Shown: in pieces, positions 29,752-51,839 of the stretch
How the letters are laid out: every line of letters begins with the position of its first letter
Numbering within the stretch: the stretch's first letter is position 1
Assembly: GCA_045586785.1 (NCBI GenBank)
Contig: JAZNBA010000072.1
Coordinates: 59,197 to 123,196 of the forward strand
Source: Eubacteriales bacterium
GTDB lineage: Bacteria > Bacillota > Clostridia > Oscillospirales > CAG-272
Length of the DNA stretch: 64,000 nt
Direction of reading: 5' to 3'
Program-made: the position numbers and the translations under genes
The notes under the pieces: generated by a model
The model's database searches: none
What the model was told of the DNA's origin: nothing
The model's input: the letters and a program-made list of their open reading frames with translations, nothing else

Positions 29752-29755
29752 ATAG

Positions 29756-32381: not shown

Positions 32382-32740
32382 TACGCGCCTCCCTTATAGA
32401 GATCGCGGATGAGATTTACGAGCTCGGCTCTCGTTTCGCCATCCGCTCCCGCGCAGATATTTTCGAGCCTTGCGATGGTCGGATACCAATCCATAGGTCT
32501 CTCTCGGCTCATCCTTGTGTTAACCGATTGACGAAGGTACTCGGATACCGTAATTCCTCGCTTTTCGGCCGCGCGTTCGATTTTTGCTTTATGATCCGTT
32601 GTAGTTTTGAAACGAATCACTTCTTCTTTTTTCTTGTTGTCGATAATGTTTTCCTCCATTCCTTTTGGTTTTGTTCGTTCATCCGAGGGTATTAGGGACA
32701 CCTCCCTAAAGTGTCTTTGCGCTGAGGCAAAGACGGGCAA
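32381..32740 (-). CDS. MobC-like relaxosome accessory protein (ribbon-helix-helix)
   Basis: IRFKTTTDHKAKIERAAEKRGITVSEYLRQSV. The true start may be the internal ATG at 32659. Confidence 0.65.
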   Translation of the reverse strand: MPVFASAQRHFREVSLIPSDERTKPKGMEENIIDNKKKEEVIRFKTTTDHKAKIERAAEKRGITVSEYLRQSVNTRMSRERPMDWYPTIARLENICAGADGETRAELVNLIRDLYKGGA

Positions 32741-35556: not shown

Positions 35557-35584
35557 CACCTAACAATCTATTAGGTGAACAAAA
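35557..35584 (+). repeat. inverted repeat, left copy (IR-L)
   Basis: CACCTAACAATCTATTAGGTGAACAAAA. Its reverse complement matches 35689-35716 at 27/28 positions. Confidence 0.9.
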
Positions 35585-35604
35585 CAATATACTAACCCAT
35601 TATT

Positions 35605-35633
35605 ATTCTACCACAATACTCGCTTTTTTTCAA
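35605..35633 (-). promoter_or_regulatory. promoter inside the IR-flanked segment, currently facing the integrase 3' end
   Basis: Minus strand TTGAAA-17 nt-TAGAAT with TG extended -10. Confidence 0.5.
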
Positions 35634-35688
35634 TACATAGGAAGAAAAATTTACATATTTCTCCTCTATAGATGAACATCTCACGGAT

Positions 35689-35716
35689 TTTTGTTCACCT
35701 AATAGATTGTTACGTG
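35689..35716 (-). repeat. inverted repeat, right copy (IR-R)
   Basis: TTTTGTTCACCTAATAGATTGTTACGTG. Also part of a local 14-bp hairpin, 35684-35727. Confidence 0.9.
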
Positions 35717-35788: not shown

Positions 35789-37759
35789 ATGTGTAAGTAT
35801 GAAGTGCCCAGTTCAGAATTAATGCGGAATATCAATTCGATGATTAAACCCTACGGAGTGAAGTATTTTGTCTCTGAAGAAAAATTCAATAATAACGAAA
35901 GCTGCTTTCCAACATTTGCTCGGAAGCCTGCTTCTGATGAGGACATTGCTAAATATGTGACCCATTACGGTTTGAGTCGCTATACAAAAGCCAACCAAAA
36001 AGCATTATTGGAATATTTTTGGGACGATTATCGTACTTTTTTCGGACGAGAACACGACAGAATAATTTGCACCAACTCTTTCCGTCGCTTGCAATATAAA
36101 ACGCAAGTTATGGTTAACTCTGCATCCGACGAGCAAAGAACAAGACTGTTGCATTCCTCGGAGGTTCAGAGAATCGCTAAAAAGATAGCCATTGGTGTTG
36201 GAGCCAATGCGGAATTGTCAGAAAATATAGCAATTGCTCACGATATTGGTCATGCTCCTTTTGGTCATAGTGGCGAGGAAGCAATTAGTGACTACATACT
36301 CGATATGTTCGAAAAAATCCCATCGCATTCAATTAAGAGTGGAACCACTTGTTTCTTACATGCAATGCAAAGCACCAAAGTGTTAGATTATATTGCTACC
36401 CATCCTACACTTCAGGAGAATGGTATAAATGGCTTGGGACTTTCAGATTATGTTTTAGAAGGAGTTTTGAAGCATGATTCTGATGTGTTTGCGGAGGAAA
36501 TCATAGCTGCACCCTTAAAAAAGCAGTACGATCCGGAAAGGCTGTGCGGTATTGTAGGCATCGGATCATACGAGGAAGTTAAGCGTAAGTTGCAGACATA
36601 CAATATAAAAAATAATGTCTTCATAGATACATATCCCCAAACATTTATCGGTAGCATTGAATCTCAAATTGTTGCTTGGGCTGATAAGATTGCATACCTT
36701 GGACACGATTGGGAAGAATTTTTGGATAATAAACTTCTTGAAAAATTAATGTCGAGAATCAATGATATGATTCACAAGATGTTTGAAGTTTCTTCGAAAA
36801 TTGCAGACACAAACGAAAAATTCTACATTGATACTATTTGTTTCAGACTTAAAGAGATTGAAGCCATATATTCAACTCTTGATGATACTGAAAAGGCAAA
36901 TAAAACTTTTGGTTGGAAAAAGGTTTATCAAGAATTATTGCGCATCATCGAGATTATTGAAAAAATTGAATCCGAGAACAAATTCGACCATTTCTCATCA
37001 AAAGAATATAGAGCTTTGAAAGACTATTTTGTTATGGTAATTAGTTGGACAAAGTTGCTGGACAAATATCCCTCCCCCCAAGCACTTAAATATGATCCCA
37101 TTTATATTTTCTATTTGTATTTGTCTGAGGTCAGAACAACAAATATAACAAAAAATGTTACAGAGAAAATTATCTCTGGATCCAACAGTATCCTTTCATC
37201 ACACAATTTCAACACAAGAGAAGAGTATTTATTGCACTGTAATCAAAAATGGGTTGAAGTTTTTAATAAAATCTTGTCTAACACAAGTCTTGATGAAAAA
37301 TCCAAGAAAAAGCAATTGAAAGACAGTATTCGCACTTGTTTTTTAGTTCAATTTGGTTCAGAGCAAACAAAAAACAACATCGTTAACATTGATTATAATC
37401 CTGATGTAATAAAGAAATCCAATACAGGATATTATTCTTTCGATGATACATACTGTTGCTTATTAAACATCATAGGTTGCATTTTTAGTCAATATATTAA
37501 AAGTACCCGTGTTAATTTTATGACTCAGAAGGCGAAAAGAATTGTTGCGGGATTGATGGAATATTACGTTAACCATCCCGAAATGCTCCCGTATTCTCAA
37601 CGAAGAAAGAATAACTTAAGCGATACCGATGAAGAACTTATTTATTTTATTGCAGATTATGTTGGTGGTATGACCGATCGTATGGCTAAGAAAAAATATG
37701 ATGAAATTATGTCATCGGATACCAAGTGGAGTAATGAATACAGTAGCGGCTTGAATTAA
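35789..37759 (+). CDS. dGTPase-like HD-domain (dNTP triphosphohydrolase family) protein with long C-terminal extension
   Basis: 656 aa. REHDRIICTNSFRRLQYKTQV, RTRLLHSSEVQRIAKKIA and AHDIGHAPFGHSGEE blocks. About 28 % GC on a sampled line. Confidence 0.8.
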   Translation: MCKYEVPSSELMRNINSMIKPYGVKYFVSEEKFNNNESCFPTFARKPASDEDIAKYVTHYGLSRYTKANQKALLEYFWDDYRTFFGREHDRIICTNSFRRLQYKTQVMVNSASDEQRTRLLHSSEVQRIAKKIAIGVGANAELSENIAIAHDIGHAPFGHSGEEAISDYILDMFEKIPSHSIKSGTTCFLHAMQSTKVLDYIATHPTLQENGINGLGLSDYVLEGVLKHDSDVFAEEIIAAPLKKQYDPERLCGIVGIGSYEEVKRKLQTYNIKNNVFIDTYPQTFIGSIESQIVAWADKIAYLGHDWEEFLDNKLLEKLMSRINDMIHKMFEVSSKIADTNEKFYIDTICFRLKEIEAIYSTLDDTEKANKTFGWKKVYQELLRIIEIIEKIESENKFDHFSSKEYRALKDYFVMVISWTKLLDKYPSPQALKYDPIYIFYLYLSEVRTTNITKNVTEKIISGSNSILSSHNFNTREEYLLHCNQKWVEVFNKILSNTSLDEKSKKKQLKDSIRTCFLVQFGSEQTKNNIVNIDYNPDVIKKSNTGYYSFDDTYCCLLNIIGCIFSQYIKSTRVNFMTQKAKRIVAGLMEYYVNHPEMLPYSQRRKNNLSDTDEELIYFIADYVGGMTDRMAKKKYDEIMSSDTKWSNEYSSGLN

Positions 37760-37780
37760 TCGCTATTTCAAGAATATTAT

Positions 37781-39388
37781 ATGAGAAATAAACCTTTCCC
37801 ACACTACAAGCACCCCATTTACGAAACCTTTGAACAGCTTCTCACTATTGTCAAATCAAAACACGGCGACAAGGTACTGTTCCGCACCCGACGTCACAAG
37901 AGCGAGGTAACTGTTACATACAATCAGTTTTACGATGATGTGCAAAAGCTCGCATCGCATTTCAGCAAGACCTACGGCGCGCACAACAAGATTGCCGTGA
38001 TCGGTGAAAACAGCTACGAATGGATTTTGACCTATTTCGCTGTCGTTTGCAGCAACAACATCATCGTTCCCATCGATAAGGAACTCTCCGCTCCCGACAT
38101 TGCCGAGCTACTGAAGGAGTGCGAGTATCGCACCTTGATCTATTCCAAAGACTACGATGACATTGCCGACGATATTGGTGGCATCATCCCCGATTTTGAA
38201 GCAATCGCCATGCCCAAACTGCGTAGGTTTATCGAAGCAGTTGAGGCAGCAGAGTGGATCGAAACCGACAAAAATGCGCTTGCATCGATCATTTACACTT
38301 CCGGCACGACAGGAAAGAGCAAGGGTGTTATGCTCTCGCAGAAGAATATTTGCGAGGACACCCGTGCGGCGTGCGGTTTCATCGAGCTGTACGGCAGAAG
38401 CCTTGCACTCTTGCCGTTCCATCACACGTTTGCGTTTACGGTCAGCGGTCTTGCCAATATCTATTACGGCGTTGATACCCTCATCGTTCCTTCTCTCAAA
38501 AACGTGATGGAGCTGATCAACGATTTCAAGCCGACCTACCTTGCCGTTGTTCCCATGATCGTCGAAAAGGTGGACAAGGGTATCCTTCAAAAGATTGAAA
38601 AGAGCGGCAAGAAGAAACTGCTCGGCGTGCTTGATAAGGTCTGCAAGCCTTTCGATGCGCTCGGTATCGGTCTGCGAAACAAGTGCTTTTCCGCCATCAG
38701 GGGCGGTCTCGGCGGCGAGCTTGACTTCATCATTTCGGGCGGCGCGCCCATCGATCAGCAGATCATTGACCGCTTTGATTCCTATGGCATCAGAATTATG
38801 AATGGCTATGGCATTTCCGAATGCTCACCCGTTGTCAGCGTCAACCGCCGTTATCACTACCGCGCGGGTAGTATCGGTCAGGCTCTCCCCGAGGTCAAGG
38901 TCATGATCGATAATCCCGACGAGAATGACGAGGGAGAGATCTGTGTGCAGGGCGATATCGTCATGCTCGGCTACTACAATATGCCCGAAGAGACCGAAAA
39001 GGCAATCGTTGACGGCTGGTTCCACACGGGCGACCTCGGCAAGCTCGACAAGGACGGCTTCATCTACATCACGGGGCGCATTAAGAATCTGATCATCTTG
39101 TCTAACGGTAAAAACGTTTCGCCCGAAGAGCTTGAAACGCTGATCGGTCGCATCCCCGGCGTTGTCGAATGCCTCGTCTCCGAGGAAGATAATAAGCTCG
39201 TTGCCGAGATCTATCCCAATGAAGAATTCCGCGCAACGCAGAATGACATTCAAGCATATTTCGACGAGCAGATCGGCCAGCTCAACGATACACTCCCGCC
39301 CTATAAGGCGATTGCAAAGGTCGCTATCCGTGACACCGAATTTGTAAAAACTACCACCAAGAAAATTAAGAGAACATACAAAAAGTGA
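37781..39388 (+). CDS. acyl-AMP/CoA ligase (fatty-acid activating adenylate-forming enzyme)
   Basis: 535 aa. IIYTSGTTGKSKGV, GYGISE, HTGDLG, ITGRIKNLIILSNGKNVSPEELE. Confidence 0.85.
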   Translation: MRNKPFPHYKHPIYETFEQLLTIVKSKHGDKVLFRTRRHKSEVTVTYNQFYDDVQKLASHFSKTYGAHNKIAVIGENSYEWILTYFAVVCSNNIIVPIDKELSAPDIAELLKECEYRTLIYSKDYDDIADDIGGIIPDFEAIAMPKLRRFIEAVEAAEWIETDKNALASIIYTSGTTGKSKGVMLSQKNICEDTRAACGFIELYGRSLALLPFHHTFAFTVSGLANIYYGVDTLIVPSLKNVMELINDFKPTYLAVVPMIVEKVDKGILQKIEKSGKKKLLGVLDKVCKPFDALGIGLRNKCFSAIRGGLGGELDFIISGGAPIDQQIIDRFDSYGIRIMNGYGISECSPVVSVNRRYHYRAGSIGQALPEVKVMIDNPDENDEGEICVQGDIVMLGYYNMPEETEKAIVDGWFHTGDLGKLDKDGFIYITGRIKNLIILSNGKNVSPEELETLIGRIPGVVECLVSEEDNKLVAEIYPNEEFRATQNDIQAYFDEQIGQLNDTLPPYKAIAKVAIRDTEFVKTTTKKIKRTYKK

Positions 39389-39398
39389 GGACAAAACC

Positions 39399-39626
39399 AT
39401 GTTAGATAAAGTAATTTCCATCATCAGCGAATATCAGGACATCCCTGCAGACACCATTCACGCCGATAGCCACCTCGTCAATGACCTCGGCTTCACCTCC
39501 TACGACGTGGTCAGCCTCGTCGGAAAATTTGAGGACGAGTTTGACATCGAAGTCCCCGACAGAAAGATCAAGCTCATGAAAACCGTGGACGATATCGTAA
39601 AATTCATCGAGGCAGCAATAGAATAA
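39399..39626 (+). CDS. acyl carrier protein
   Basis: 75 aa. LVNDLGFTSYDVVSL phosphopantetheine-site block. Confidence 0.85.
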   Translation: MLDKVISIISEYQDIPADTIHADSHLVNDLGFTSYDVVSLVGKFEDEFDIEVPDRKIKLMKTVDDIVKFIEAAIE

Positions 39627-39698
39627 TTATTGGTTCTATAAACACTAACCATACAAACACACATAACATTCATATAAAAAGAAATAGGAGAATGAACA

Positions 39699-40244
39699 AT
39701 GAGTCAGTACATCAAAATCCCCAGAGGACGTATCCCTAATCGCATTAATGATGAAATATTTAGAAAAATTGTATGTATGATTGGAAAAACTGAAAAAAGC
39801 AATTTTGTTACAGCAAAATTGTCAGACTATGCTCGTGGCAAAATTTATTTACGAAACAAGTATGGAATATGTGGATGCACATTGAAGAAAATGCATACAA
39901 TAAAAGTAACTACACACGGATTTGAAAATTTTGGCGATAACTATTCGAATTATGTGTCCCTTCATGAGGGAAAAGCAAAAATAATTTTTATGGTCATCAA
40001 AGACTATATAAAGAAAGACCCTAATAGAATAGCAGAATTACGTCATATATGTGAGGAGTTTTATACTACAAATCCTAATATTACTCCTACATACGCAAAT
40101 TCGTTGTTAAATGAAACGTTCAATTGGATTTTCGATTGTGGGTTGGAAACAGCACCTTTTTGTCAATTTAACAAACGGGACAATGCATGGGATATAGCGA
40201 ATGATATAAAATGTTCCATAGAAGAAATTGACGAAAACTTCTGA
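39699..40244 (+). CDS. hypothetical protein
   Basis: 181 aa with RBS AGGAG. About 30-32 % GC. No motif recognised. Confidence 0.5.
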   Translation: MSQYIKIPRGRIPNRINDEIFRKIVCMIGKTEKSNFVTAKLSDYARGKIYLRNKYGICGCTLKKMHTIKVTTHGFENFGDNYSNYVSLHEGKAKIIFMVIKDYIKKDPNRIAELRHICEEFYTTNPNITPTYANSLLNETFNWIFDCGLETAPFCQFNKRDNAWDIANDIKCSIEEIDENF

Positions 40245-40258
40245 AGGGAGGATATTAT

Positions 40259-40969
40259 ATGCGTCATACTGTGAATGAGTGGCAAGATTTAAGCCTGAAA
40301 AAAGATGTTGAAAATGTGGCAAGAGAAATCAAGAGAAAAGGCAAAAGAGAGAGTATTTTAACACTCGATTTGTTACTTGCCATATTAGCTATTATGTTTG
40401 ATCATTTATTCTCGGAAAATGAGTGCGAAAGGATAATAGTTTTAAGTGTAATTGCTGGATTGGCGGTAATAATTACTGCTATATATTTTTTACTAAAATT
40501 TTTGGATTGGCGTAAAGCGAGAAGAAAAATAAAAAGCGGGATCATAAAAATAAAGCCTTATGTTGATTTGTTTGATAATAATATTTGTTATTATGCCATG
40601 ACAGCAAATACGTTTAGAGAAAATTTCCAAAACGAATCTCATGATTCGTCAATAAAGAACTTCTACTTTATTGAATCGAATTACTATGTGAATAAGTGCA
40701 TAACTGAACTAAATAATATGAAAAATCTCATAGGAGAAATCTTCACAAATGATGAAAATGAAGCTGTTTCAAAAGCGAAAATTCACACTTCAAGATTAGA
40801 GAATATTATTTTGCTTTTATGTGACGCAAGAGTTAATCCAACCTCTGTATCTTCCTCAATAGAAGATACTATACGAATCTCAAAAATATATGATGCACGG
40901 ATGATAAAATTTGTTGAAACTTATAATAAGCAATTTGAAAAAACTATAGAATGGACTTCTTTTCAATAA
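40259..40969 (+). CDS. hypothetical membrane protein
   Basis: 236 aa with RBS GGGAGG. Two predicted TM helices (aa ~33-85), then a soluble domain. About 30 % GC. Confidence 0.5.
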   Translation: MRHTVNEWQDLSLKKDVENVAREIKRKGKRESILTLDLLLAILAIMFDHLFSENECERIIVLSVIAGLAVIITAIYFLLKFLDWRKARRKIKSGIIKIKPYVDLFDNNICYYAMTANTFRENFQNESHDSSIKNFYFIESNYYVNKCITELNNMKNLIGEIFTNDENEAVSKAKIHTSRLENIILLLCDARVNPTSVSSSIEDTIRISKIYDARMIKFVETYNKQFEKTIEWTSFQ

Positions 40970-41041
40970 ACGCTTTCACGTTGAATGTAGTGAAATCAAT
41001 TGAATTTCTACGAGGATTAATCAAAAAATAGATAGGTAAAT

Positions 41042-44000
41042 ATGAAAACATACGCTTTATCCAATGCACAATTAAATATATTAGATACAGAGCTATTTTA
41101 TCGAGGCTCTGCTATCAATATCGTAGGAGGAGTCTGCCTACTTAACGAGCCAATTGAGGAAGAACAGTTGTCATCGGCATTGAACAAACTAATTGCCAAC
41201 AACGATTGGCTCCGCACCAGAATTAGAGGTAACAGATCTTCACTGTATCGTTATGTTTCTGAATATACTGATGCATCTTTTGCAACTTTGGATTTTACCA
41301 ATGTTTCGGAAGCTGAAATGTGGTCTGCATTGGAGGAAGCAAACAAGGCTCCTTTTGATATTTGGGATTCACAACTCTACGATGTAAAATTGGTACGTAC
41401 TCCGAACAATAAAATCGGATATTGGTTCAGAGCGCACCATATTGTTTGTGATGCCGCCAATATGTATCGTATCGTTGCCGAGGTATCGAGCCTTATTTTT
41501 GGCAATGACAATCCGTTGCCGAGTAATGCACGGGTTCGGGATATTACTGCCCGTATGAAAGAAAAGGCGCTTACATATTGGCGTGATAATGAGATCACAG
41601 GACTTGAAAGCCATCGTCCTACGGGAACTGTAGTAGCAGACCGAATGACATTCAAACTGTCGGGCGATATCATGAAAAAGCTGAGTGCGTTTGCTGAATC
41701 CAAACAGATCGCGTGTTCAACCATCGTTGAGGGCGCGTATTATTTGGCTTTGTCTGCTTTGTTTGATAAAGACAGATTTTCAGTCGGTCTTATGTATCTG
41801 GATGACAACAGTGCTTGCGTGGACGGACTTGCCGGACCCCGCGCTTCTGTTGTGCCGACAATTTCAAAACTTGATCCCTCTCTTACCTTTGCGGAATACT
41901 GTGAGGAAATTCTGGATCAGCACATGACGGCATATCGCTATTCATGTTTGCCTTACAGAGATATCCTTTCGGCAGTCAAGCATGATAGCGAAAACAAAAA
42001 TTCCTCGTTTTATGATTTCGTATATTCCTGCCACGCACTCGACACCTCTATTTTGGGGGATTGTGAGATCAAATGGCTTTTCAACGGTTGCTCGGAAGTT
42101 CCGCTGAAATTGAGTGTTATGCCCGAAAAGGATACGCTCAATCTAATGATCGATTGTCGTAAAGGTGTTTACATTGGCGGCTTTACAGAAAAGCTCTATC
42201 AATGTATTCTTTCTGCGCTTAACCACATCTTCGACGCTCCCGATGCACATCTTGGTACATTGGTTAATGCCATCCATGCCGATATCCATCAAACCGGGCA
42301 TATAAGCAAAGAACGTGTTTGTATCGCGGCATCTTTTACTGCTGATCCGATTGACGAATACCTGTATTATTGGGCGCACAGAGATAACGTTATTTTGAAT
42401 TTGTCCTTTGCACCGTATAATCAGATTCAGCAAATGCTTCTCGATCCGAACAGCATATTCCGAAACAATAAAAATGGCACTAACATCATTCTAATGCGTT
42501 TTGAGGATGCGATTCGTCATACGGATGATTCTGCTGAAGCGCGTATTGCGGTCATGCAGCATATGCAAAAGGAATTTACAACCGCCCTGTGTAGCTATCC
42601 TACAGATGCTCCTCGATGCCTTGTAGTGTGTTTGCCTTTTGACGGCAATATTGCGGGTGTGTCTGCCGAGATCGTAGCAAATATGAATGAGCAGATCAAA
42701 GCGGTTTGCTCCAAGATTCCCAATATTCATTATGTCGATACCGACGATCTCTGTGAGAGATACGTTGTTCACGATACCCTTGATACCGTTGCCGATGACG
42801 AAGGTCATATCCCTTATACCACCACATTCTTCGCCGCATTGGGCACTCACGTTTGGCGACAGCTTTGCGCAGCAAAACGAGTGAAAAAACATAAGGTTTT
42901 GGTCGTGGATTGCGATAATACCTTATGGCAAGGTGTTTGCGGTGAAATTGGTGCGACCAATGTAACCGTTGATGGCGGTTACGCATGGTTTCAAAAATTT
43001 CTACTTGCGAAGCGCGAAGAAGGATACCTTCTGGCGATTGCAAGTAAGAACAATCCCGAGGACGTTAAGCGTGTATTTGCCGAAAACAAGCAAATGCTCT
43101 TAAAAGAAAGCGATATTTCCGCTTGGCGCGTATCTTGGAATCCGAAAGCTGAAGAGATCAGATCTATTGCCGAAGAGTTAAATCTTGGGCTTAACAGCTT
43201 TGTCTTTTTCGATGACAATCCCGTTGAATGCGATGCGATGATCGAAGAAAATCCCGAGGTTTTGACAGTACGTATGCCCTTGGATTCTACACAGATTGCT
43301 CCGCTTGTCGGCAACATTTGGGCACTTGACAGCGTATATACCACGGACGAAGATCGCAACCGTGCCGATATGTACCGAGCAGAAAAAGAGCGCGAGCAAG
43401 CGAGAACCGAGGAAAAATCTCTGCACGCATATCTTAAAAAGCTGAACATCCAAATGTATATGTATCCCACCACGCCCGATGAAATTGATCGCGTGGCACA
43501 GCTTACACAGCGCACCAATCAGTTTAACATGAACGGTGTGAGATACCTCAAGGAGGATGTTACCGAATGGCTGCAGAGCGATCACTACGGATGCTATAGT
43601 GTATATGTGAAGGACGCATACGGAGATTACGGTCTTGTCGGCGCGCTCGTCCTTTCTTATACTGACGGCAAGTGTAATTTACAGACCTTTGTCCTTAGTT
43701 GCCGCGTACTCGGACGAGAGATCGAAATTGCTATTTTGAATGAAATTGCCAATATTGCAAGATCACGCGGTGCTTTTGCATTCAGCGCCTCAGTCAAGCG
43801 CACACAGAAAAATGAACCCTTTATGCGCTTCTGGCAGGCGTATGTTGAGGACAATGAAAATATTGTATGTGCGAATTTCAATACGCCTTCGCATATTACG
43901 GTTATCCAAGAAAAATATATTAAGCCTACCTCTCAAAAGGCAAATACAACAGCAGCTGTTAAATCTGTTGCTCATACAGGAACTTGCGCGCTGACGACCG

Positions 44001-47000
44001 TGCCGTCGGATATTCAAACGAATGATGCGGAATTAAAAGAATTCATTCCGTTGTGTGCATCCGAAGCAATTGCTCAAGCACTCGGCAAATTCATTCCCGG
44101 ACAAGCTCAGGGCGAGATCGTGGATAAAGTAAAATCGGTGTGGGAGAGTGTGCTCGGACTTACGATTGACCGTGATGATGCAAGCTACTTTGAACTTGGC
44201 GGTGATAGTCTTAAAGCTGTTCATCTCATTTCTATACTGGATAAAGAATTTGGTGCTCGCATTTCAGTGTCGGACATTTATCGCTATGCCACTATTTCGG
44301 ATATGGCAAAGTATATTGCCACTCTGATACCCGAAGAAGCAGCTGAATTTGAACACATCAGCACGACCGAGCCGTATCCACTCTCGTCAGCACAGCAAAG
44401 AATGTTTGTACTTCAATCCATGAATCGTGACTCTGTTCAGTATAACGAATCGCAAGCAATGGAGATGATCGGTCAGGTCAACATTGAGCGGATACAAAAT
44501 GCTGTGTACGAAATCATCAATCGTCACGATATTCTCCGTACTGCTTTTACGCTTGAACAAGGAGTTCCTGTTCAAACGGTGTTGCCTTGTGTCGATATCA
44601 AGGTTGAGACGATTTCTTGCACCGAAGATTCATGGCAAAAAGAGGCTATCGCATTTAGAAAACCTTTTGATTTGTCGAATCCTCCGTTGATGCGCTTCGC
44701 CGTGCTTCATACCACCGATACCAACCGCAACTTTATGCTGTTCGATGCTCACCATATGGTCATTGACGGCACATCCTTTGCGGTATTTGCAGAGGAATTT
44801 GTCCGTTTGTATAACGGCGAAGTGCTTCCCGAAAACAAGTATCAATACATAGATTACGTTAATTGGGAGAATAAACGTAAGGATACGCCCGAATACGAAA
44901 GCGATATGGCATATTGGGTATCGCAGTTTGATCCTATGCCTGCACCGCTTGCGTGGATCGACGATAGCAAACGCGCCAATAGCATCGGTAGAGGAAATAC
45001 CTTGTTCTATGCTACAGATAGTGAACTCAAACAATCGTTGGAGAACTATGCAAGTAAGAATCAGGTAACCCTATTTTCCGTACTGCTCTCTGCGTATGCA
45101 ATGACGATTTCTTCGCTTGCCAATGCAGACGAGTTTGTTGTAGGTGTCCCTGCTTCTAACAGATTACATCATCACACACTCTCGATGATGGGCAATTTCG
45201 TCAACAGTATGCCGATCCGCATTGCCACCACCGCAGAAAGCAAAATCAGTGCTCTGGTGAAATCGGTATTTGACACAACGACCGAAGCACTCAACCACCA
45301 AAGCTGTCCTTATGAGAATATCGTAAAAGCATTGCAATGCGACCGTCAGAACAATCGCAACCCGCTATTCGACGTGATGTTCTCGCTTCAAAACTTTGTT
45401 TCGCCCATCATTGAAACCAAGGATATGAAGCTTGTACAAATGCCTATGCAAGTCGGAACAGCAAAAAATGATATCCGTTTGTTTGCTGCATTGCACGATG
45501 ACCATATATCTTTTGAAATGGAATACGACATAGACCTCTTTGATACTTACTTTATGGAGTCGTTCCGTGAAAAATATTTGTCTGTATTGGAGTTGATGGT
45601 TACAGACGAGGCAATGACAGCCGGCGATATTGCGACTGAATTGCAACACAAACAGAAAGAAGCAGACCGTTTGTTCCTTGAAAAGTATAACGATACGGCA
45701 AGACCCGGTTACTACGATCACCTCGTTCACGACATGATCCGTGAACAGGTAGAGAAAATTCCGGATGCAATTGCACTTATTTGTGGCGGTGAGAAGCTGA
45801 CCTACCGTGAACTTGATGATCGTTCCTCGGCTTTGGCAAACATTCTGCGTCAAAAAGGTGTTCGTGCAAGAGATAAAGTCGGCATTGTATTGCCTCGTTC
45901 TCCCGAGCTGATCGTCGGACTGTTGGCGATCATGAAAGCGGGAGCAGTCTATGTGCCTGCCGATCCGATATATCCTACCGAGCGTATCGATTATATGTTC
46001 GGTAATAGCGAGATCGTTTGTATGATTTCGCAGAACGATATGGAACTGCCGAGCGAATACATTCGTTACGATATTCATGAATTGGAGAAAGAAGAAACTG
46101 TCGAACAGACCATTGAGGACGAGACGCTTACTCCCGATGATCTCATTTATATTCTTTACACCTCCGGATCAACAGGCAAGCCTAAAGGAGTTATGATCAA
46201 GCATGGCGCGGTAAGCAACTTTATTAATTCGCTCCGTGAGTTGATTCCATACGAAGAACAAAGCGCAATTTTGGCGACAACTACGGTTTGCTTTGATATG
46301 TCAATTATTGAATTGTGGAGAACGCTATCGTTTGGAGGAACGATGATTTTTGCAACCGATAACGAACGACATGATATCGACGCTCATCGGGAAATGATAA
46401 AAAAACATGGCATTTCTGAACTGAATATTACTCCCTCGCAAATGTCTGTGTTTTTACTTGATACAAATCCAAGCATTTGGAAGAGTATTCAAACTATTAT
46501 GATTGGTGCAGAACCTGTTCCACCATCGTTAGTTGAAAAAATAAAACATATCATACCGCAAGCTCGAATTTTTGATTTGTATGGCCCTACGGAAACAACT
46601 GTATATTCTTCAATTATGGAGCTGACAAACGAAACAGAGGTCACTATCGGGCATCCAATTGCAAACACAAAACTTTTCGTTGTTGACTCCGAAAAGAAAA
46701 TTCTCCCTATCGGTATGACGGGCGAATTGTGTATCGGTGGTTTAGGCTTGTCTGCGGGATATATGAATCGTCCCGATCTGACCGAGAGACAATTTGTGAC
46801 CCTTGCCGAAAATAATGAATTTGTTTATCGGACGGGAGATCTTGCAACACTTCGCGCCGATGGGAAGATGCTGTGCCATGGTCGAATCGATAACCAAATC
46901 AAAATCCGCGGTTATCGTGTGGAGTTAGAGGAAATCGAGCAAAGTATTATGAAGAGCGGCTTGTGCAGAGAATGTACTGTATTCTTGTTGGATAATGATC

Positions 47001-48559
47001 ATCTTGGAGCAATTTATACTGCTGTTGGAGATTACGAATCGATTGATATTATCGACTATATATCAGGTGTGCTACCACGTTATATGGTTCCGTCAAAGTT
47101 TGTCAAGGTGGACAGTATTCCGCTCAATGTCAACGGTAAAGCAGATAGAAAGAAAGCACGTGAAATTGCTAATCAAATCGAAGACGATGCTGTAGAGGTT
47201 GCGACTTCGGGATATACCGAAGATGTGCTTCTTGCTATTTTCAGAAGAATCACACGCAATAATCGTATCGGAGTTAATGATTCTTTCTTCGAGGCAGGTG
47301 GATCTTCGCTTGGAATCTTCCAAGTTCTGTCCGAGATCGAATCTGTATTTGGCATTAAACTGCAGTATGCCGATGTGTATAAAAACATGACAGTAGCAGG
47401 AATTGCTTCGATGATTGAGGTAGCAACCAGTGCTACATTGCCCAATGTATCCTCTGTCGGAAATGTTACCAAACAAGATATAGAAGAAGTTCTTGATGTA
47501 TCTAAACTACATATCAATAACTCCAGGAATTCCCTCGCAAAAGGTGTTTTGCTTACGGGTGCAAATGGTTTCCTTGGGAATCACTTGCTATATGAGTTGT
47601 TAGTAGAAACAGATTTTGATATATATTGCTTGGTTCGAAAAAAGCGTCGCTTAATAGATGCGATTCAATATTATTGGGGAAACGGCTTTTATCACAGATA
47701 TCAAGCAAGAATTCATTGTATTGAGGGCAATATAGGCATTCCTGGTTTAGGTGTTTCAGCAGAAATGAAAAAGAATATAAGCGTGATTTACCATGCTGCC
47801 GCAAGCACAAAACACTACGGGGAATTTGCCGATAGTTTCCTATCCAACACATTGGGTACACGATATGTTGTTGATTTGTGTGCAGAAATAGGTGCTGAAT
47901 TACATCATATTTCTACTACGGCTGTGTCGGGATTGAATGTTGTAACTGTAGACTACAATGAACAATCAAAACCTCATTTTACAGAAAATGATCTTGAGAT
48001 CGGTCAACACTACGAGGATAATATTTATATTCACAGCAAATTGTTAGCAGAAAAGATCGTATTGTCTGCTATCGAAAAAGGGATGGATGCTTATATTTAT
48101 CGTGTTGGAAACTTGACCGAACGATTCAGCGACGGAGTTTATCAGATGAACAATGAAAATAATGCATTTATGATTAGAGAAAGAGCTATCCGTAAGCTCG
48201 ATGCAATCTCTCCTGCATTCCACTCGTTCATCTTTGAAAAAACACCTATTGACCTTTGCGCAAAAGCAATCTTGGCACTCACAAAACGTAAACATCAAGA
48301 TCATGTATTCCATGTATTCAGTCCGAATGCTTTGAACGGATACGACTACTACAGAGGCATTTTCCCCGACCTTAAAGAAGTAACTGATGAGGAATGGTTT
48401 GCTTTGCTCGATAAGGAGGCAGAAAAGGATACTTCGTGCGCGGTTATGAGGGCATACGTTAAAAATCTGTTAGCCGTTTCAGTTCCAATAGAAACAAAAT
48501 GTGATGTTACATTGAAAGCACTTGAAAAATGTGGCTTCCAATGGCAAGAAAAGGAGTAA
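41042..48559 (+). CDS. hybrid NRPS-like megasynthetase, domain order C - FkbH-like (HAD-IIIC + GNAT-like) - T - C - A - T - R
   Basis: 2505 aa. C1 HHIVCDA (nt ~41435). HAD motif LVVDCDNTLW (~42905). T1 LGGDSL (~44198). C2 HHMVIDG (~44750). A-domain YTSGSTGKPKG / YGPTETT / YRTGDLA / GRIDNQIKIRGYRVE / NGKADRK. T2 AGGSSLG (~47296). R domain LLTGANGFLGNHL and YIHSK (~47550-48050). Confidence 0.9.
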   Translation: MKTYALSNAQLNILDTELFYRGSAINIVGGVCLLNEPIEEEQLSSALNKLIANNDWLRTRIRGNRSSLYRYVSEYTDASFATLDFTNVSEAEMWSALEEANKAPFDIWDSQLYDVKLVRTPNNKIGYWFRAHHIVCDAANMYRIVAEVSSLIFGNDNPLPSNARVRDITARMKEKALTYWRDNEITGLESHRPTGTVVADRMTFKLSGDIMKKLSAFAESKQIACSTIVEGAYYLALSALFDKDRFSVGLMYLDDNSACVDGLAGPRASVVPTISKLDPSLTFAEYCEEILDQHMTAYRYSCLPYRDILSAVKHDSENKNSSFYDFVYSCHALDTSILGDCEIKWLFNGCSEVPLKLSVMPEKDTLNLMIDCRKGVYIGGFTEKLYQCILSALNHIFDAPDAHLGTLVNAIHADIHQTGHISKERVCIAASFTADPIDEYLYYWAHRDNVILNLSFAPYNQIQQMLLDPNSIFRNNKNGTNIILMRFEDAIRHTDDSAEARIAVMQHMQKEFTTALCSYPTDAPRCLVVCLPFDGNIAGVSAEIVANMNEQIKAVCSKIPNIHYVDTDDLCERYVVHDTLDTVADDEGHIPYTTTFFAALGTHVWRQLCAAKRVKKHKVLVVDCDNTLWQGVCGEIGATNVTVDGGYAWFQKFLLAKREEGYLLAIASKNNPEDVKRVFAENKQMLLKESDISAWRVSWNPKAEEIRSIAEELNLGLNSFVFFDDNPVECDAMIEENPEVLTVRMPLDSTQIAPLVGNIWALDSVYTTDEDRNRADMYRAEKEREQARTEEKSLHAYLKKLNIQMYMYPTTPDEIDRVAQLTQRTNQFNMNGVRYLKEDVTEWLQSDHYGCYSVYVKDAYGDYGLVGALVLSYTDGKCNLQTFVLSCRVLGREIEIAILNEIANIARSRGAFAFSASVKRTQKNEPFMRFWQAYVEDNENIVCANFNTPSHITVIQEKYIKPTSQKANTTAAVKSVAHTGTCALTTVPSDIQTNDAELKEFIPLCASEAIAQALGKFIPGQAQGEIVDKVKSVWESVLGLTIDRDDASYFELGGDSLKAVHLISILDKEFGARISVSDIYRYATISDMAKYIATLIPEEAAEFEHISTTEPYPLSSAQQRMFVLQSMNRDSVQYNESQAMEMIGQVNIERIQNAVYEIINRHDILRTAFTLEQGVPVQTVLPCVDIKVETISCTEDSWQKEAIAFRKPFDLSNPPLMRFAVLHTTDTNRNFMLFDAHHMVIDGTSFAVFAEEFVRLYNGEVLPENKYQYIDYVNWENKRKDTPEYESDMAYWVSQFDPMPAPLAWIDDSKRANSIGRGNTLFYATDSELKQSLENYASKNQVTLFSVLLSAYAMTISSLANADEFVVGVPASNRLHHHTLSMMGNFVNSMPIRIATTAESKISALVKSVFDTTTEALNHQSCPYENIVKALQCDRQNNRNPLFDVMFSLQNFVSPIIETKDMKLVQMPMQVGTAKNDIRLFAALHDDHISFEMEYDIDLFDTYFMESFREKYLSVLELMVTDEAMTAGDIATELQHKQKEADRLFLEKYNDTARPGYYDHLVHDMIREQVEKIPDAIALICGGEKLTYRELDDRSSALANILRQKGVRARDKVGIVLPRSPELIVGLLAIMKAGAVYVPADPIYPTERIDYMFGNSEIVCMISQNDMELPSEYIRYDIHELEKEETVEQTIEDETLTPDDLIYILYTSGSTGKPKGVMIKHGAVSNFINSLRELIPYEEQSAILATTTVCFDMSIIELWRTLSFGGTMIFATDNERHDIDAHREMIKKHGISELNITPSQMSVFLLDTNPSIWKSIQTIMIGAEPVPPSLVEKIKHIIPQARIFDLYGPTETTVYSSIMELTNETEVTIGHPIANTKLFVVDSEKKILPIGMTGELCIGGLGLSAGYMNRPDLTERQFVTLAENNEFVYRTGDLATLRADGKMLCHGRIDNQIKIRGYRVELEEIEQSIMKSGLCRECTVFLLDNDHLGAIYTAVGDYESIDIIDYISGVLPRYMVPSKFVKVDSIPLNVNGKADRKKAREIANQIEDDAVEVATSGYTEDVLLAIFRRITRNNRIGVNDSFFEAGGSSLGIFQVLSEIESVFGIKLQYADVYKNMTVAGIASMIEVATSATLPNVSSVGNVTKQDIEEVLDVSKLHINNSRNSLAKGVLLTGANGFLGNHLLYELLVETDFDIYCLVRKKRRLIDAIQYYWGNGFYHRYQARIHCIEGNIGIPGLGVSAEMKKNISVIYHAAASTKHYGEFADSFLSNTLGTRYVVDLCAEIGAELHHISTTAVSGLNVVTVDYNEQSKPHFTENDLEIGQHYEDNIYIHSKLLAEKIVLSAIEKGMDAYIYRVGNLTERFSDGVYQMNNENNAFMIRERAIRKLDAISPAFHSFIFEKTPIDLCAKAILALTKRKHQDHVFHVFSPNALNGYDYYRGIFPDLKEVTDEEWFALLDKEAEKDTSCAVMRAYVKNLLAVSVPIETKCDVTLKALEKCGFQWQEKE

Positions 48560-48563
48560 TGCT

Positions 48564-49331
48564 ATGAAAACAGCAATTATTACTGGCGCATCTTCCGGCG
48601 TTGGCACGGAATTTTTGAAAGTGCTTGTTCATGATAACAGCATCGAAGAATTTTGGATCATCGCAAGAAACGAAAAACGCCTTGAAGAATTAAAAGCACA
48701 ATATTCCAATAAAAGTATCGTTTGCATACCTCTTGATTTGACAAACGAAGAATCAATGCAGGTATATGAAAATCACCTCCGTGCAAAAAAGCCGGAGGTG
48801 GTGACCCTTGTTAATAATGCGGGATTTGGTATTTTAGGAGAGGTATATGGTTCGGATTATGTAGAGCAAGCGAAAATGGTAGATTTGAATTGTCGCGCTC
48901 TCACAACCATTACAACAATAACCTTGCCGTACATGACTGAAAATTCGGGAATCATCAATATGGCTTCTATTGCTGCATACTGCCCAAATCCGAATTTTAC
49001 GGTTTATTGTTCTGCCAAAGCATACGTATTGAGCTATTCTCGTTCATTGCGTTATGAACTGAGAATGAAAAAACGCAAGATCAATTCTCTTGCCGTTTGT
49101 CCCGGACCTATGAACACAAACTTTTGCGCTACTGCAGGAATCACAACACAGTTTGATGCCTTGCCGTTCACTGATCCTGCCAAAGTTGCTAAAACCGCTG
49201 TCAAGAAACTTCGTGAAGGAAAAGCCGTCTATACGCCCGGTGTATTCTTTAAATTTTATCGTTGTATTGCTAAATTACTTCCACACTCGCTTGTGATGGG
49301 ATTTAGCCAAACGATTAAAGATGGAAAATAA
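48564..49331 (+). CDS. short-chain dehydrogenase/reductase (SDR)
   Basis: Start at MKTAIITGASSGVGTEF (AAGGAG upstream). NNAG and YCSAKAY motifs. Confidence 0.85.
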   Translation: MKTAIITGASSGVGTEFLKVLVHDNSIEEFWIIARNEKRLEELKAQYSNKSIVCIPLDLTNEESMQVYENHLRAKKPEVVTLVNNAGFGILGEVYGSDYVEQAKMVDLNCRALTTITTITLPYMTENSGIINMASIAAYCPNPNFTVYCSAKAYVLSYSRSLRYELRMKKRKINSLAVCPGPMNTNFCATAGITTQFDALPFTDPAKVAKTAVKKLREGKAVYTPGVFFKFYRCIAKLLPHSLVMGFSQTIKDGK

Positions 49332-50481
49332 TGAATATATAGATACGAACAGAGCATGGGCTGAAATCGACATAACTAAAGCAAAGGAAAATTATTTTTC
49401 CATAAAGAAATGTCTTAAGCCCCAAACCCAAATATGCTGTGTAGTGAAAGCCAACGCCTACGGTCACGGCTCTGTTCGTATGGCTCAGTTATATGAGTCA
49501 CTTGGTGCAAATTACTTGGCTGTTGCTACGATTGAAGAAGCTCTGCAACTTCGTCAAGCCCCAATAAAGCTACCGATACTAATATTGGGATATACCGCAC
49601 CGCAATATGCAGATGTTCTATCCGATAACGATATTACACAGTGCGTATATTCATTAGACTACGGTCGAGCTTTGTCAAGTTGCGCTACAGAAAAAGGCAA
49701 ACCCGTAAAAGTACATATTAAAATTGATACGGGAATGGGTCGCATTGGATTTCGATACGTTGGCGGCGATGAGCAAGAATTAACAGATGCGCAAACTGTA
49801 TGCCGAATGCAAGGGTTGACTGTAGAAGGTATTTTTACTCACTTTTCGTCTGCTGATGATGAAATAGGTTCTGATGAAACAACAGAGCGACAGTATCAAT
49901 ACTTCTTAGAAGCAATTTCATATTTGGAAAAGCGAGGCATTCAATTTTCTATTCGCCACTGTTCCAATAGTGCTGCAATCCTTAAATATCCCCATACGCA
50001 GCTCGATATGGTACGTGCTGGTATTTCCTTGTATGGATTGGATGCTGATAATTTATTTTCATGTCAAACAAATCTGCATCAGATACTCCAACTAAAAACA
50101 ATAGTTAGCCATATAAAGCTAATCCATAAAGGAGATACTATTGGATACGGTCGGTAATATGTTGCAGAAAAGGACACAATTATCGCAACTCTTCCAATTG
50201 GATATGCGGATGGTCTGTGGAGAGCCAATTCGCGTCACGGAATGCTTGTGAATATTAACGGTGAGTACGCACCCATTATTGGACGAATTTGTATGGATCA
50301 ATGTATGATTGATGTCACAGCGTTGAAAGAAGTAAATGTCGGCGATATTGTTACGGTATATGGTGATAGTGAAATCAACTCAATAGATAAAATTGCAGCA
50401 ATAAACAAAACTATCAGCTATGAGATTGTTTGTAGTGTTAGCGAAAGAGTACCAAAATTTTATGTTAATAACGATTTGTGA
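49321..50481 (+). pseudogene. alr: alanine racemase interrupted by one in-frame TAA (50155-50157)
   Basis: VVKANAYGHG PLP-Lys motif. ...[33 protein letters not shown]... continues in the same frame (50242 minus 49321 is a multiple of 3). Confidence 0.8.
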
Positions 50482-51085
50482 TTTATCCTCGTATTCAGAT
50501 GAGCAATATCAAAATGACCTAACCACAATTCCAGTATGGCGAAGAGAAAAGGCATTGCAATACAAAAAGCTCGATGACCGCAAGCGTTCGGTCTTGGCTT
50601 TCGTGCTATTGCAGCGCGCTCTGCGTGATGAATATGGTATTACCGAGATTCCCGAATTTGTATATAACGAGTTCGGGAAACCCTCGTTGCTGAATCTGCC
50701 CATCCATTTCAGCTTGAGCCATTGTAAAGATGCCGTTGCTTGTGCCGTATCTGATCACAATATCGGTATCGACGTGGAAAGCATCGTGCCGTATAATCCC
50801 GATGTCGCTCGGAGAGTTTGCACGGCAGCAGAGCTTGAAATGCTTGAACAGAGTGATGACAAGGACGTGGAGTTCATCAAGCTTTGGACGGTTAAAGAAG
50901 CAATCTCAAAGTATGAGGGAATGGGATTGTCGTTGCCGTTTGCAGAGATTGATACGATGAATTACTTACTCTGCTCAAACGTAAGTGTTAATAGCAGATA
51001 TGTACTAAGTATTTGCTATGGAAAACGAACCGACACCCTTGCCCTTCCGCGCATCAAAATGCTATCCGCAACTGATTTAATATGA
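50462..51085 (+). CDS. Sfp-type 4'-phosphopantetheinyl transferase
   Basis: FSLSHCKDAVACAV..IGIDVE and KLWTVKEAISKYEG motifs. The start is uncertain (50420 or 50462) and overlaps the alr 3' end. Confidence 0.8.
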   Translation: MLITICDLSSYSDEQYQNDLTTIPVWRREKALQYKKLDDRKRSVLAFVLLQRALRDEYGITEIPEFVYNEFGKPSLLNLPIHFSLSHCKDAVACAVSDHNIGIDVESIVPYNPDVARRVCTAAELEMLEQSDDKDVEFIKLWTVKEAISKYEGMGLSLPFAEIDTMNYLLCSNVSVNSRYVLSICYGKRTDTLALPRIKMLSATDLI

Positions 51086-51090
51086 ATTTG

Positions 51091-51122
51091 AAAAGTTCGT
51101 GTAACAACGAACTTTTCTTTTT
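51091..51122 (+). terminator. rho-independent terminator of the cargo operon
   Basis: AAAAGTTCG-N8-CGAACTTTT followed by CTTTTT. Confidence 0.75.
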
Positions 51123-51156: not shown

Positions 51157-51185
51157 TTGACAAATGCTTTCTTTTATGATATAAT
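51157..51185 (+). promoter_or_regulatory. consensus promoter of the LexA-like gene
   Basis: TTGACA-17 nt-TATAAT with extended -10 TG. Flanked by GAAAC-N5-(G/T)TTTC palindromes at 51134-51148 and 51199-51213. Confidence 0.7.
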
Positions 51186-51224
51186 TCCAATACATACTGA
51201 AACATTATGTTTCTTGGAGGGTTT

Positions 51225-51839
51225 ATGAGAAGAAAAGACGAATCAAAAAAGAGTGTGATACTTGATTTCATCGACGAGTATTACAACGAATATAACGAGA
51301 TCCCTGCCGTAAGAACAATCGCAGAGGGCACGGGAATTGCTTTAGCAACCGTGCATCGTTATCTGCTGTCGCTCAAAGAAAGCGGCGAACTTGAATACAA
51401 CGGTCGCAAGTCGATCTCCACCAAGCGCATTGATTTGGAATCGCGTCACGCTTCTGCTCCCGTTCTCGGTTACGTCCGCTGCGGCGAAGGCGAAGAAGAA
51501 ACAGAGGAAGTCATCGAGTATATCCGTCTCCCCGAAAGCTTAGTTGGCACGGGAGAATTCTTTGTACTGATAGCAAAGGGTGATTCTATGGTGGATGCAG
51601 GCGTTAATGAGGGTGACTATGTCGTTATCCGAAAGCAGAATACCGCTAATGAAGGAGATTATGTTGTTGCACTATATGAGGGACTTAACAATCTGAAAGA
51701 GCTTGCACGTGGTGATAACGGCAGATACATTCTCCGATCTTGTAATGAGGATAAGGCGACCTATCCCGATATCTACCCAAACGATTTGAGAATACAAGGG
51801 GTAGCCGTTTGTGTAATGCATAAATTATTAAGGAGGTAA
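51225..51839 (+). CDS. LexA-like S24 peptidase repressor
   Basis: Winged-HTH N-terminus (RTIAEGTGIALATVHRYLLSLKESGELE). The GDSM serine and a Lys 37 residues later match the E. coli LexA S119/K156 spacing. Confidence 0.85.
   Translation: MRRKDESKKSVILDFIDEYYNEYNEIPAVRTIAEGTGIALATVHRYLLSLKESGELEYNGRKSISTKRIDLESRHASAPVLGYVRCGEGEEETEEVIEYIRLPESLVGTGEFFVLIAKGDSMVDAGVNEGDYVVIRKQNTANEGDYVVALYEGLNNLKELARGDNGRYILRSCNEDKATYPDIYPNDLRIQGVAVCVMHKLLRR

Follow-up and report, generated by a model that had tools for sequence, protein, structure and literature searches.

A compact FkbH-containing NRPS operon on a mobilisable island of an Oscillospiraceae-like Clostridia bacterium, with an N-(O-acyl-glyceroyl) amino alcohol as predicted product

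In the starter systems of the myxobacterial vioprolide and corramycin pathways, an acyl-activating ligase and an acyl carrier protein (ACP) act together with a condensation (C) domain placed directly before a glycerate-loading FkbH (HAD)-thiolation (T) unit, after which the modules of a nonribosomal peptide synthetase (NRPS) continue by amide formation. This arrangement of fatty acyl-AMP ligase (FAAL), ACP, C, FkbH and T, with esterification of the glycerate, has been established in the case of vioprolide, and for corramycin it has been proposed (PMC8949500, PMC10099666). Here we describe an operon of similar layout at positions 37781-51085 of a 64,000-nucleotide stretch of contig JAZNBA010000072.1 from a Eubacteriales bacterium, referred to throughout as the window. 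All genes of the operon lie on the plus strand and encode, in this order, an acyl ligase, an ACP, a 2505-aa synthetase, a short-chain dehydrogenase/reductase (SDR), an alanine racemase and a 4'-phosphopantetheinyl transferase (PPTase). The synthetase gene (41042-48559) is a single uninterrupted open reading frame (ORF) of 2505 aa with the domain string C-FkbH-T-C-A-T-R, A and R denoting adenylation and thioester reductase domains. With a probability of roughly 0.6, we read this locus as a compact hybrid lipo-glycerate NRPS operon whose product would be an N-(O-acyl-glyceroyl) amino alcohol, and which an uncultured Oscillospiraceae-like Clostridia bacterium carries as cargo of an integrative mobilisable island.

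Compared to the vioprolide and corramycin starters, the ligase and ACP of the window are free-standing, and the ligase looks more like a CoA ligase than a FAAL. A single amino acid module follows, against 8 to 12 in those pathways, and release is reductive. The host is an anaerobic Firmicute, the cluster lies on a mobile island, and the first C domain (C1) may be of another C subtype. An earlier note on this DNA, made by a model from the letters alone, did not recognise the pathway as a characterised one. This holds insofar as, in the open-access literature, no paper was found that ties the full domain string to a product or that deals with an FkbH NRPS in gut or rumen Clostridia; the loading logic, however, is already known in vioprolide and corramycin. 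A characterised precedent exists for every module, and the locus is a new combination of known modules, not new machinery.

The genes and domains of the operon, and the matches by which they were assigned, are given below.

37781-39388, plus strand: acyl ligase of the ANL superfamily, 535 aa (Pfam AMP-binding, E=3e-61)
39399-39626, plus strand: stand-alone ACP, 75 aa (PP-binding, E=9e-11; NCBIfam acyl carrier protein models, 61-64 bits)
39699-40969, plus strand: two non-conserved ORFs between ACP and synthetase, of 181 aa (39699-40244) and 236 aa (40259-40969)
41042-42286, plus strand: C1, N-terminal condensation domain, aa 1-415 (Condensation, full length, E=1.6e-32 with the domain scanned by itself)
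42287-43843, plus strand: FkbH unit, made up of an N-terminal extension (aa 416-616) and a HAD-IIIC phosphatase/acyltransferase domain (aa 617-934)
44123-44317, plus strand: T1 carrier (PP-binding, aa 1028-1092; GGDSL with its Ser at about aa 1056)
44372-45634, plus strand: C2, canonical condensation domain (Condensation, best stretch aa 1111-1531; HHMVIDG; omega, or dN/dS, 0.09-0.11)
45740-47191, plus strand: A domain, aa 1567-1980 by hidden Markov model (HMM) (TIGR01733, 391 bits)
47219-47427, plus strand: T2 carrier (GGSSL at aa 2086; second Ser at about aa 2089)
47546-48559, plus strand: R, terminal thioester reductase domain, aa 2169-2472 (NAD_binding_4, E=2.4e-36)
48564-49331, plus strand: classical SDR, 255 aa (adh_short, E=2e-31), with its likely true start at 48564 (MKTAIITGASSGVG)
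49321-50481, plus strand: alanine racemase, interrupted (TIGR00492, 245 bits, N-terminal part; Ala_racemase_C, remainder)
50462-51085 (start likely), plus strand: Sfp-type PPTase (ACPS, E=1e-13; AusB/AcpT-type NCBIfam matches)
51090-51117, plus strand: terminator-like hairpin, an 11-bp stem followed by TTTTT, which closes the operon

The operon, its limits and the domain string claimed in the earlier note were borne out: HMM scans confirmed the genes and recovered each domain at the coordinates given above, including the FkbH/HAD-IIIC and R domains. The operon genes are tightly spaced on one strand, and the 3' limit at 51085 is sound because the hairpin at 51090-51117, immediately 3' of the PPTase gene, is followed by a promoter consensus at 51157-51185. 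The latter matches the sigma-70 consensus at 12/12 positions (TTGACA-17-TATAAT, with an upstream TG) and fronts a gene for a LexA/S24-type repressor (51207-51839) which, with its perfect promoter, is probably the SOS-type switch of the island. Catalytic motifs, as read from the translation, are present throughout the synthetase, with C1 as the sole deviation. Of the catalytic residues that the earlier note had singled out, the carrier serines, HHMVIDG of C2 and YIHSK of R are in place, whereas C1 carries HHxxxDA instead of HHxxxDG, a form that is nonetheless conserved (omega 0.20). Omega ranges from 0.00 to 0.21 across the synthetase domains and amounts to 0.06-0.07 for the ligase, 0.15 for R and 0.08 for the SDR, values that indicate purifying selection on every domain.

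The proposed pathway would begin with the priming of three carrier sites by the PPTase. The ligase would adenylate a carboxylic acid, probably a fatty acid, and probably load the acyl group onto the adjacent ACP, as the adjacency of the two genes and their relatives suggest. FkbH would take a glyceryl unit from 1,3-bisphosphoglycerate or 3-phosphoglycerate, dephosphorylate it and load it onto T1. C1 would then move the acyl group to a glycerate hydroxyl, a step for which vioprolide is the precedent; since the glyceryl acceptor offers hydroxyls only and no amine, C1 would have to form an ester. The A domain would load a small amino acid, most likely Gly and possibly Ala, onto T2, C2 would form the amide, and R would release the thioester as an aldehyde using NAD(P)H, which the co-inherited SDR would turn into the alcohol. 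This route would give an N-(O-acyl-glyceroyl) amino alcohol, an ethanolamide if Gly is used; alleles of relatives ending in a thioesterase (TE) domain would release the corresponding acid. The product class named in the earlier note, an acyl-glycerate-amino aldehyde or alcohol, is still the most reasonable reading.

The assignment of the FkbH unit is carried by a match of 296.2 bits between aa 617-934 and TIGR01686 (curated cut-off, 146.65), by a match of the HAD core to PDB 3slr (E=1.7e-24), and by the motifs DCDNT (aa 623), ASKNN (aa 667), FFDDNP (aa 722) and LSCRVLG (aa 885), all of which are invariant in five relatives. A conserved Cys in the C-terminal subdomain of FkbH proteins is catalytic. 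The stretch of ~200 aa that precedes the domain (aa 416-616) has no Pfam match and corresponds to the N-terminal extension (NEX) of FkbH proteins described in PMC12304814, and T1 with its GGDSL motif sits ~95 aa downstream of the domain. By analogy with the glyceryl-carrier chemistry of characterised FkbH enzymes (PMC7489565), the unit would thus load a glyceryl unit onto T1. The same HAD-IIIC domain and chemistry are found in the FkbH proteins of tetronate and methoxymalonyl-ACP pathways, which differ from the window in that FkbH is a stand-alone protein working with a stand-alone ACP and then with FabH-like or FkbK/I/G enzymes, partners that the window does not have.

Relatives of the synthetase are few in the protein database searched. 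TE forms the C-terminal end of P0001 (90% identical over the first 85%) and of P0002 (54%), and R that of P0003 (46%, full length). The core set of ligase, ACP, C-FkbH-T-C-A-T-(R/TE) synthetase and PPTase recurs, with synthetases 46-90% identical, on three independent contigs of differing gene order, namely L001 (ligase, ACP, synthetase(TE), PPTase), L002 (synthetase(R), SDR, ligase, ACP, PPTase) and L036 (GCA_016648615.1, the contig of P0002: synthetase(TE), ligase, ACP, further genes, PPTase). A scan of species-representative genomes yielded a further TE-type locus, L003, in a Eubacteriales metagenome-assembled genome (MAG); its synthetase is 95% identical over the first 1100 residues, and its contig starts inside the ACP gene, with no ligase visible there. 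The window ACP is 96-99% identical to those of L001 and L003, and the PPTase, from residue 21 of its long ORF, is 76-78% identical to theirs. The ligase is 93% identical (omega 0.06-0.07) to the ligases of L001 and of L033, the latter belonging to a sister island (L033-L035) that combines this ligase (93% identity), an ACP (85% identical) and a PPTase with a C-A-T-TE NRPS and lacks an FkbH synthetase. The A-domain code of that NRPS, DITQIGIVWK, is Gly-like, and the sister island is accordingly predicted, from its domain content and code, to make an N-acyl-glycine-type product.

Exact-sequence look-ups with the synthetase, the SDR (from either candidate start) and the ligase of the window returned no record. 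When a metagenome collection was scanned with the C-FkbH-T alignment, one close relative (L036) and one at 36% identity were returned; the synthetase family is rare in that collection. The phage collection gave two partial HAD matches only, and among plasmids full-length C-FkbH-T matches were confined to Niallia and Ralstonia, those on Clostridium perfringens plasmids covering the HAD core only. C-FkbH-T accompanied by ligase and ACP occurs elsewhere at 26-29% identity, in Ralstonia megaplasmids, Niallia, Paenibacillus, Pedobacter, Flavobacterium and Chitinophagales. The cluster on the Ralstonia solanacearum megaplasmid resembles the window in having an AMP-binding protein, an ACP and a C-FkbH-T protein of 1179 aa which, at 27% identity, spans 99% of the first 1100 residues of the window synthetase; it differs in that a polyketide synthase (PKS) and a hydrolase follow instead of C-A-T-R, and in its proteobacterial host. 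In record CP047139.1 (L085, 1568852-1584224) the genes are, in order, AMP-binding, acyl-CoA dehydrogenase, ACP, a 955-aa hypothetical protein, the 1179-aa C-FkbH-T protein annotated as a HAD-IIIC family phosphatase, PKS and hydrolase. To our knowledge, this Ralstonia cluster is uncharacterised.

The vioprolide precedent bears on the fate of the acyl chain. In that pathway the active compound arises by hydrolysis of an acylated precursor that is itself inactive, and the same is suspected for corramycin (PMC10099666), so that the acyl chain of the window product might likewise be a transient pro-drug or export handle, the mature compound being a small deacylated glyceroyl-amino alcohol or aldehyde. 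The operon and the conserved core of its relatives hold no hydrolase, esterase or exporter gene, however, and we regard a deacylated product as very unlikely; the acylated amino alcohol is the product we retain.

The reductive end of the line is supported by both R and the SDR. R displays the motifs GANGFLG (aa 2173) and YIHSK (aa 2329; YxxxK) and has as its best solved matches an NRPS PCP-R structure (6vtj), the R domain of AusA, and MxaA; its score against the thioester-reductase model TIGR01746 is 141 bits, under the 213-bit cut-off. Omega for R was computed against L032, a short metagenome contig with R and SDR at 89% DNA identity and the PPTase gene directly after the SDR gene, without a racemase. 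The SDR, which starts 5 nt past the synthetase stop, retains TGASSGVG, NNAG and YCSAK. It accompanies R in four of four loci (the window, L002, L031 and L032, L031 being a partial locus described below) and TE in none of three (L001, L003 and L036), from which we infer that it reduces the aldehyde released by R to the alcohol. A comparable ending is that of linear gramicidin, in which the R domain of LgrD and a separate reductase, LgrE, share a two-step reduction that leaves a C-terminal ethanolamine. Common to both systems are a terminal A(Gly-like)-T-R and a separately encoded NAD(P)H reductase. They differ in the class of the second reductase (an SDR in the window, an aldo-keto reductase in the case of LgrE), in the number of residues (one against 15) and in that the Gly specificity of the window is a prediction. 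By this analogy, a two-step reduction to the amino alcohol of the linear gramicidin type is the best fit to the co-occurrence of R and SDR.

The aldehyde itself might instead be the functional end product, or might cyclise spontaneously with a free glycerate hydroxyl to a six-membered hemiacetal (a morpholinone-type ring), serving as an electrophilic warhead like the peptide aldehydes of gut Clostridia while the SDR acts elsewhere, on the glycerate hydroxyl or on a keto group of the acyl chain. The AusA pathway, whose R domain is among the solved relatives of the window R, releases an aldehyde, and the best family matches of the SDR are generic ketoreductase types (mycolate reductase, FabG-like). 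The R-terminated NRPSs of gut Clostridia and AusA of Staphylococcus (dipeptide aldehydes, pyrazinones) are like the window system in being small NRPSs ending in T-R with an adjoining Sfp-type PPTase in Firmicute hosts; AusA is in fact the top NCBIfam match for C2-A-T-R (808 bits, far under the equivalog cut-off of 2500 bits) and AusB that for the PPTase. Those enzymes have two A domains and make dipeptides, in contrast to the single A domain of the window, its FkbH in the position of the first A domain, its acyl-ACP start and its attached SDR. The SDR, moreover, strictly tracks R and never TE, as an aldehyde reductase would; because the acyl and glycerate parts are common to the TE alleles, this pattern disfavours a role in tailoring either of them. 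Together with the pairing of an R domain with a separate reductase in linear gramicidin, it makes an aldehyde end product unlikely in our view, and the amino alcohol is preferred.

As to the amino acid, the ten Stachelhaus positions of the A domain were anchored on GrsA numbering through the ungapped blocks SIQT…PSLV, YGPTETT and GKxDRK. Asp235 is retained (FDMSIIE), as the earlier note had read it, and the code is DMINMGLVYK in the window and DIINMGM[VI]YK in the relatives. Compared to the Gly consensus DILQ[LM]G[LM][IV]WK, as published in an A-domain survey (PMC12283262), the family code departs only at positions 239 (I/L), 278 (N/Q) and 331 (Y/W), and 6-7 of the 10 positions of the window code fit that version of the consensus when allowed variants are counted. 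The best solved match of the A domain is module 2 of LgrA (348.6 bits, ahead of McyA at 346.6), and for the pocket segment alone the top solved structure is LgrA module 2, followed by DltA (D-Ala). The code of LgrA module 2, derived here from a HMMER alignment, is DIANLCIIYK; D, N, Y and K are common to it and the window code, and it agrees with the family code at six positions. LgrA makes Val/Ile-Gly, the order given in the survey supplement, and its module 2 activates Gly. A closer kinship with LgrA, suggested by a score of 657 bits, was rejected, as this score sums two A-domain matches. These comparisons point to a small residue as the substrate, with Gly most likely and Ala possible.

Activation of alanine, possibly of D-Ala supplied by the clustered racemase, is the alternative to be weighed here. 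Asn278 and Tyr331 agree with the Ala code DL[YF]NNALTYK, DltA is the second-best solved match of the pocket segment, and the racemase gene is inserted exactly between those of the SDR and the PPTase. The A-domain survey (PMC12283262) assigns Asn278 to domains of the Ala type. Against this stand the 6-7 of 10 positions that fit the Gly consensus in the form quoted above, and the state and distribution of the racemase. Its gene carries an in-frame TAA at 50155-50157 (codon 279; IGYGR*YVAEKD), after which the frame is open to the normal C-terminus. Since the same frame continues undisturbed past the stop, the TAA would be either a very recent nonsense mutation or a sequencing error. Among the loci compared, only the window has the racemase, which is absent from L002, L031 and L032. 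It is an accessory insertion, apparently inactivated here. With the racemase broken in the window and missing from the other three R/SDR loci, the argument for D-Ala is weak, and the Gly-like code likewise speaks against the hint at D-Ala in the earlier note, which had overlooked the stop codon. We therefore consider Ala an unlikely substrate and keep to Gly.

C1 and its origin were addressed by a comparison of 331 C domains from 121 large proteins, 23 of which directly precede an FkbH domain. The active-site motif of C1, HHIVCDA at aa 132, departs from HHxxxDG by a G-to-A change, and the form HHxxCDA is kept in 5/5 relatives. Outside its own family, C1 is nearest to N-terminal C domains that do not precede FkbH, those of P0120 (Paenibacillus, 101 bits) and of P0057, an R-terminated NRPS (76 bits), and the label of a starter-type domain that the earlier note gave to C1 fits this result. 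The other FkbH-preceding C domains score at most 49 bits against C1, and a single clade of FkbH-preceding C domains that includes C1 is not supported in the 331-domain sample. The pattern suggests that the synthetase may have arisen from a lipo-dipeptide enzyme of the type C-A-T-C-A-T-R/TE, with FkbH replacing the first A domain.

Several observations weigh against the reading of the operon as a working lipo-glycerate line that ends in an alcohol. The ligase is nearer to CoA ligases than to bona fide FAALs: its best NCBIfam and PDB matches are fatty-acyl-, 4-coumarate- and malonyl-CoA ligase types (FadD13, 4CL, MatB), no FAAL-named protein is among its solved-structure matches at E<=1e-30, and it could form an acyl-CoA instead. 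C1 is divergent, with only 35 bits to solved C domains, and does not group with the other FkbH-preceding C domains sampled, so that ester formation by C1 is argued from chemical logic alone. The family matches of the SDR are only generic, and its substrate is therefore deduced from its co-occurrence with R. The A-domain code of the window matches no characterised code exactly, nor was a match found in the searched text and supplement of the 2051-domain survey, the code tables lying outside that search. Finally, the operon holds a nonsense-mutated racemase gene and a foreign 1.4-kb insert, on account of which the genes downstream may not be expressed in this strain.

The insert holds the ORFs at 39699-40969, which the earlier note had also missed. 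The segment has a GC content of 30.7%. Neither ORF has a Pfam or NCBIfam match; the 181-aa ORF has no PADLOC match either, and the 236-aa ORF has a marginal one only (CARF, E=0.0044) along with a hydrophobic stretch resembling one transmembrane helix. Between ACP and synthetase there are 25 bp in L001, and two unrelated ORFs of 179 and 101 aa, the first with hydrophobic stretches, in L003. Membership of the two window ORFs in the pathway was rejected, since they are missing or replaced in all relatives and their GC content is 31%; judged from composition and distribution, the segment is a low-GC insertion outside the conserved pathway. The gene directly upstream of the ligase is variable as well. 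In the window a defence gene of the dGTPase type, not a biosynthetic one, lies there (35789-37759; PADLOC E=1.8e-55), 21 nt from the ligase gene, and other defence-like genes take its place in the relatives, one for an FRG-domain protein in L033 (8656-9951) and one for a DUF2971 protein in L001 (5019-6065). The slot upstream of the ligase thus appears to be a variable cargo slot within the island.

The R/SDR end of the operon is itself a replacement, a further point that had escaped the earlier note, in that the R-SDR cassette is swapped for TE in alleles ~90% identical. At the DNA level the window matches L001 and L003 at 88-91% over 37780-39631 and 41041-47427 (blastn); the match ends at the end of T2 and resumes at 50531/50536, within the PPTase gene. 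The intervening tract can be described as follows.

47428-50530, plus strand: recombinant tract comprising R, SDR, racemase and the 5' end of the PPTase gene, in place of the 0.78-kb TE segment of the closest alleles

The GC content of this tract is 38-40%, against 44% for the remaining gene. Sliding identity to L003 is 92-100% up to ~46100 and then 70-84% to 47427, and synonymous divergence (dS) climbs in A and T2 to 0.88-0.99, against 0.03-0.26 before. This probably places the start of the exchanged tract inside the A domain, so that the specificity pocket is taken in. L031 (ENA ERZ28654211, 1-1938), like L032 a short metagenome contig with the R lineage of the window, joins a tRNA-Glu flank (87% to window 29644-30000) directly to a 5'-truncated R, without GxxGxxG, and the SDR (96% to window 47589-49102); the contig is either what a deletion left of this island or an assembly chimera.

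Such mosaicism prompts one to ask if, in this genome, the cluster is silent and in decay, a product of recombination rather than a working pathway. The nonsense codon in the racemase, the foreign 31%-GC insert between ACP and synthetase, and L031, which keeps only a truncated R and the SDR by the tRNA-Glu flank and so attests to loss of the biosynthetic gene cluster in some lineages, would all be in keeping with decay. The 7.5-kb synthetase ORF and the other core genes are nonetheless intact, with all catalytic motifs and low omega, and the broken racemase lies outside the conserved core. A decaying cluster is in our judgement quite improbable, and we hold to a functional operon.

If the predicted pathway is correct, it would yield a previously undescribed class of small lipids from anaerobic gut-type Clostridia, in which a small amino acid, in reduced form, is joined to an acyl-glycerate; its enzyme would be the shortest NRPS with an FkbH domain among those found, and would spread on a mobilisable island. 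The near-identical alleles constitute a natural experiment in release-domain swapping (TE versus R plus SDR) that would be useful for NRPS engineering, with a swap junction at the end of T2 and a divergent tract from inside the A domain. No new biochemical principle is involved, and the operon is a candidate source of a small glycerate-bridged lipid. On a more speculative note, and with considerable doubt, Clostridia of the gut and rumen might exchange minimal glycerate-bridged lipoamino assembly lines on mobilisable islands: N-(O-acyl-glyceroyl)ethanolamine would come from the R/SDR allele, N-(O-acyl-glyceroyl)glycine from the TE allele and N-acyl-glycine from the FkbH-less sister. Such compounds would mimic signalling lipids of the N-acyl-ethanolamine and N-acyl-amino-acid kinds, reached by a route unrelated to the known N-acyl synthases, and natural swaps of the release domain would turn an acid head group into an alcohol or the reverse.

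The operon sits in a 25.6-kb segment of 42% GC that begins right after tRNA-Met/tRNA-Glu genes (29600-29751), the left flank having 49% GC. Apart from the operon and the genes already mentioned, its features are these.

29677-29751: tRNA-Glu, left island flank
30097-30996, minus strand: ParB-like protein
30993-32381, minus strand: MobA/VirD2 relaxase
32381-32740, minus strand: NikA-like protein
34635-35549: tyrosine recombinase, 304 aa
53461-55350: large serine recombinase, 629 aa, unusually long

The segment also encodes two ORFs of no assigned family beside the LexA/S24-type repressor. No conjugation machinery was seen in the 25.6-kb segment, two of whose ORFs match no family. "Mobilisable island" is a fair description of the segment, and the setting proposed in the earlier note is upheld by the relaxase, the NikA-like and ParB-like proteins, the tyrosine and serine recombinases, the tRNA-Glu flank and the difference in GC content (42% versus 49%). 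A 17-nt stretch that copies the 3' end of tRNA-Glu with one mismatch (55267-55283; blastn-short E=0.23), and that extends to ~24 nt (~55261-55284) if one indel is allowed, lies ~25.5 kb downstream of the tRNA gene at the end of the serine recombinase ORF and may represent the right att site. Two inverted repeats were also noted, one of 28 nt (96% complementary, 35557-35716) right after the gene for the 304-aa tyrosine recombinase and one of 40 nt (54920-55114) within the 3' part of the serine recombinase ORF; either might be a site of recombination or a terminator.

With regard to the host, the tyrosyl-tRNA synthetase (TyrRS; 159-1382, minus strand) shares 83-84% identity with proteins from Ruminococcaceae/Oscillospiraceae and Clostridia MAGs. 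On the other side of the island, the minus-strand region 57393-63879 holds four tandem genes for B12-binding radical SAM proteins (58454-59794, 59791-61167, 61146-62486 and 62488-63879) beside a 354-aa ORF without a Pfam match, and a zf-HC2 anti-sigma-like gene lies nearby (56199-56870). The radical SAM group looks like a separate tailoring cluster, or one for a peptide made on the ribosome and modified after translation (RiPP), just outside the island.

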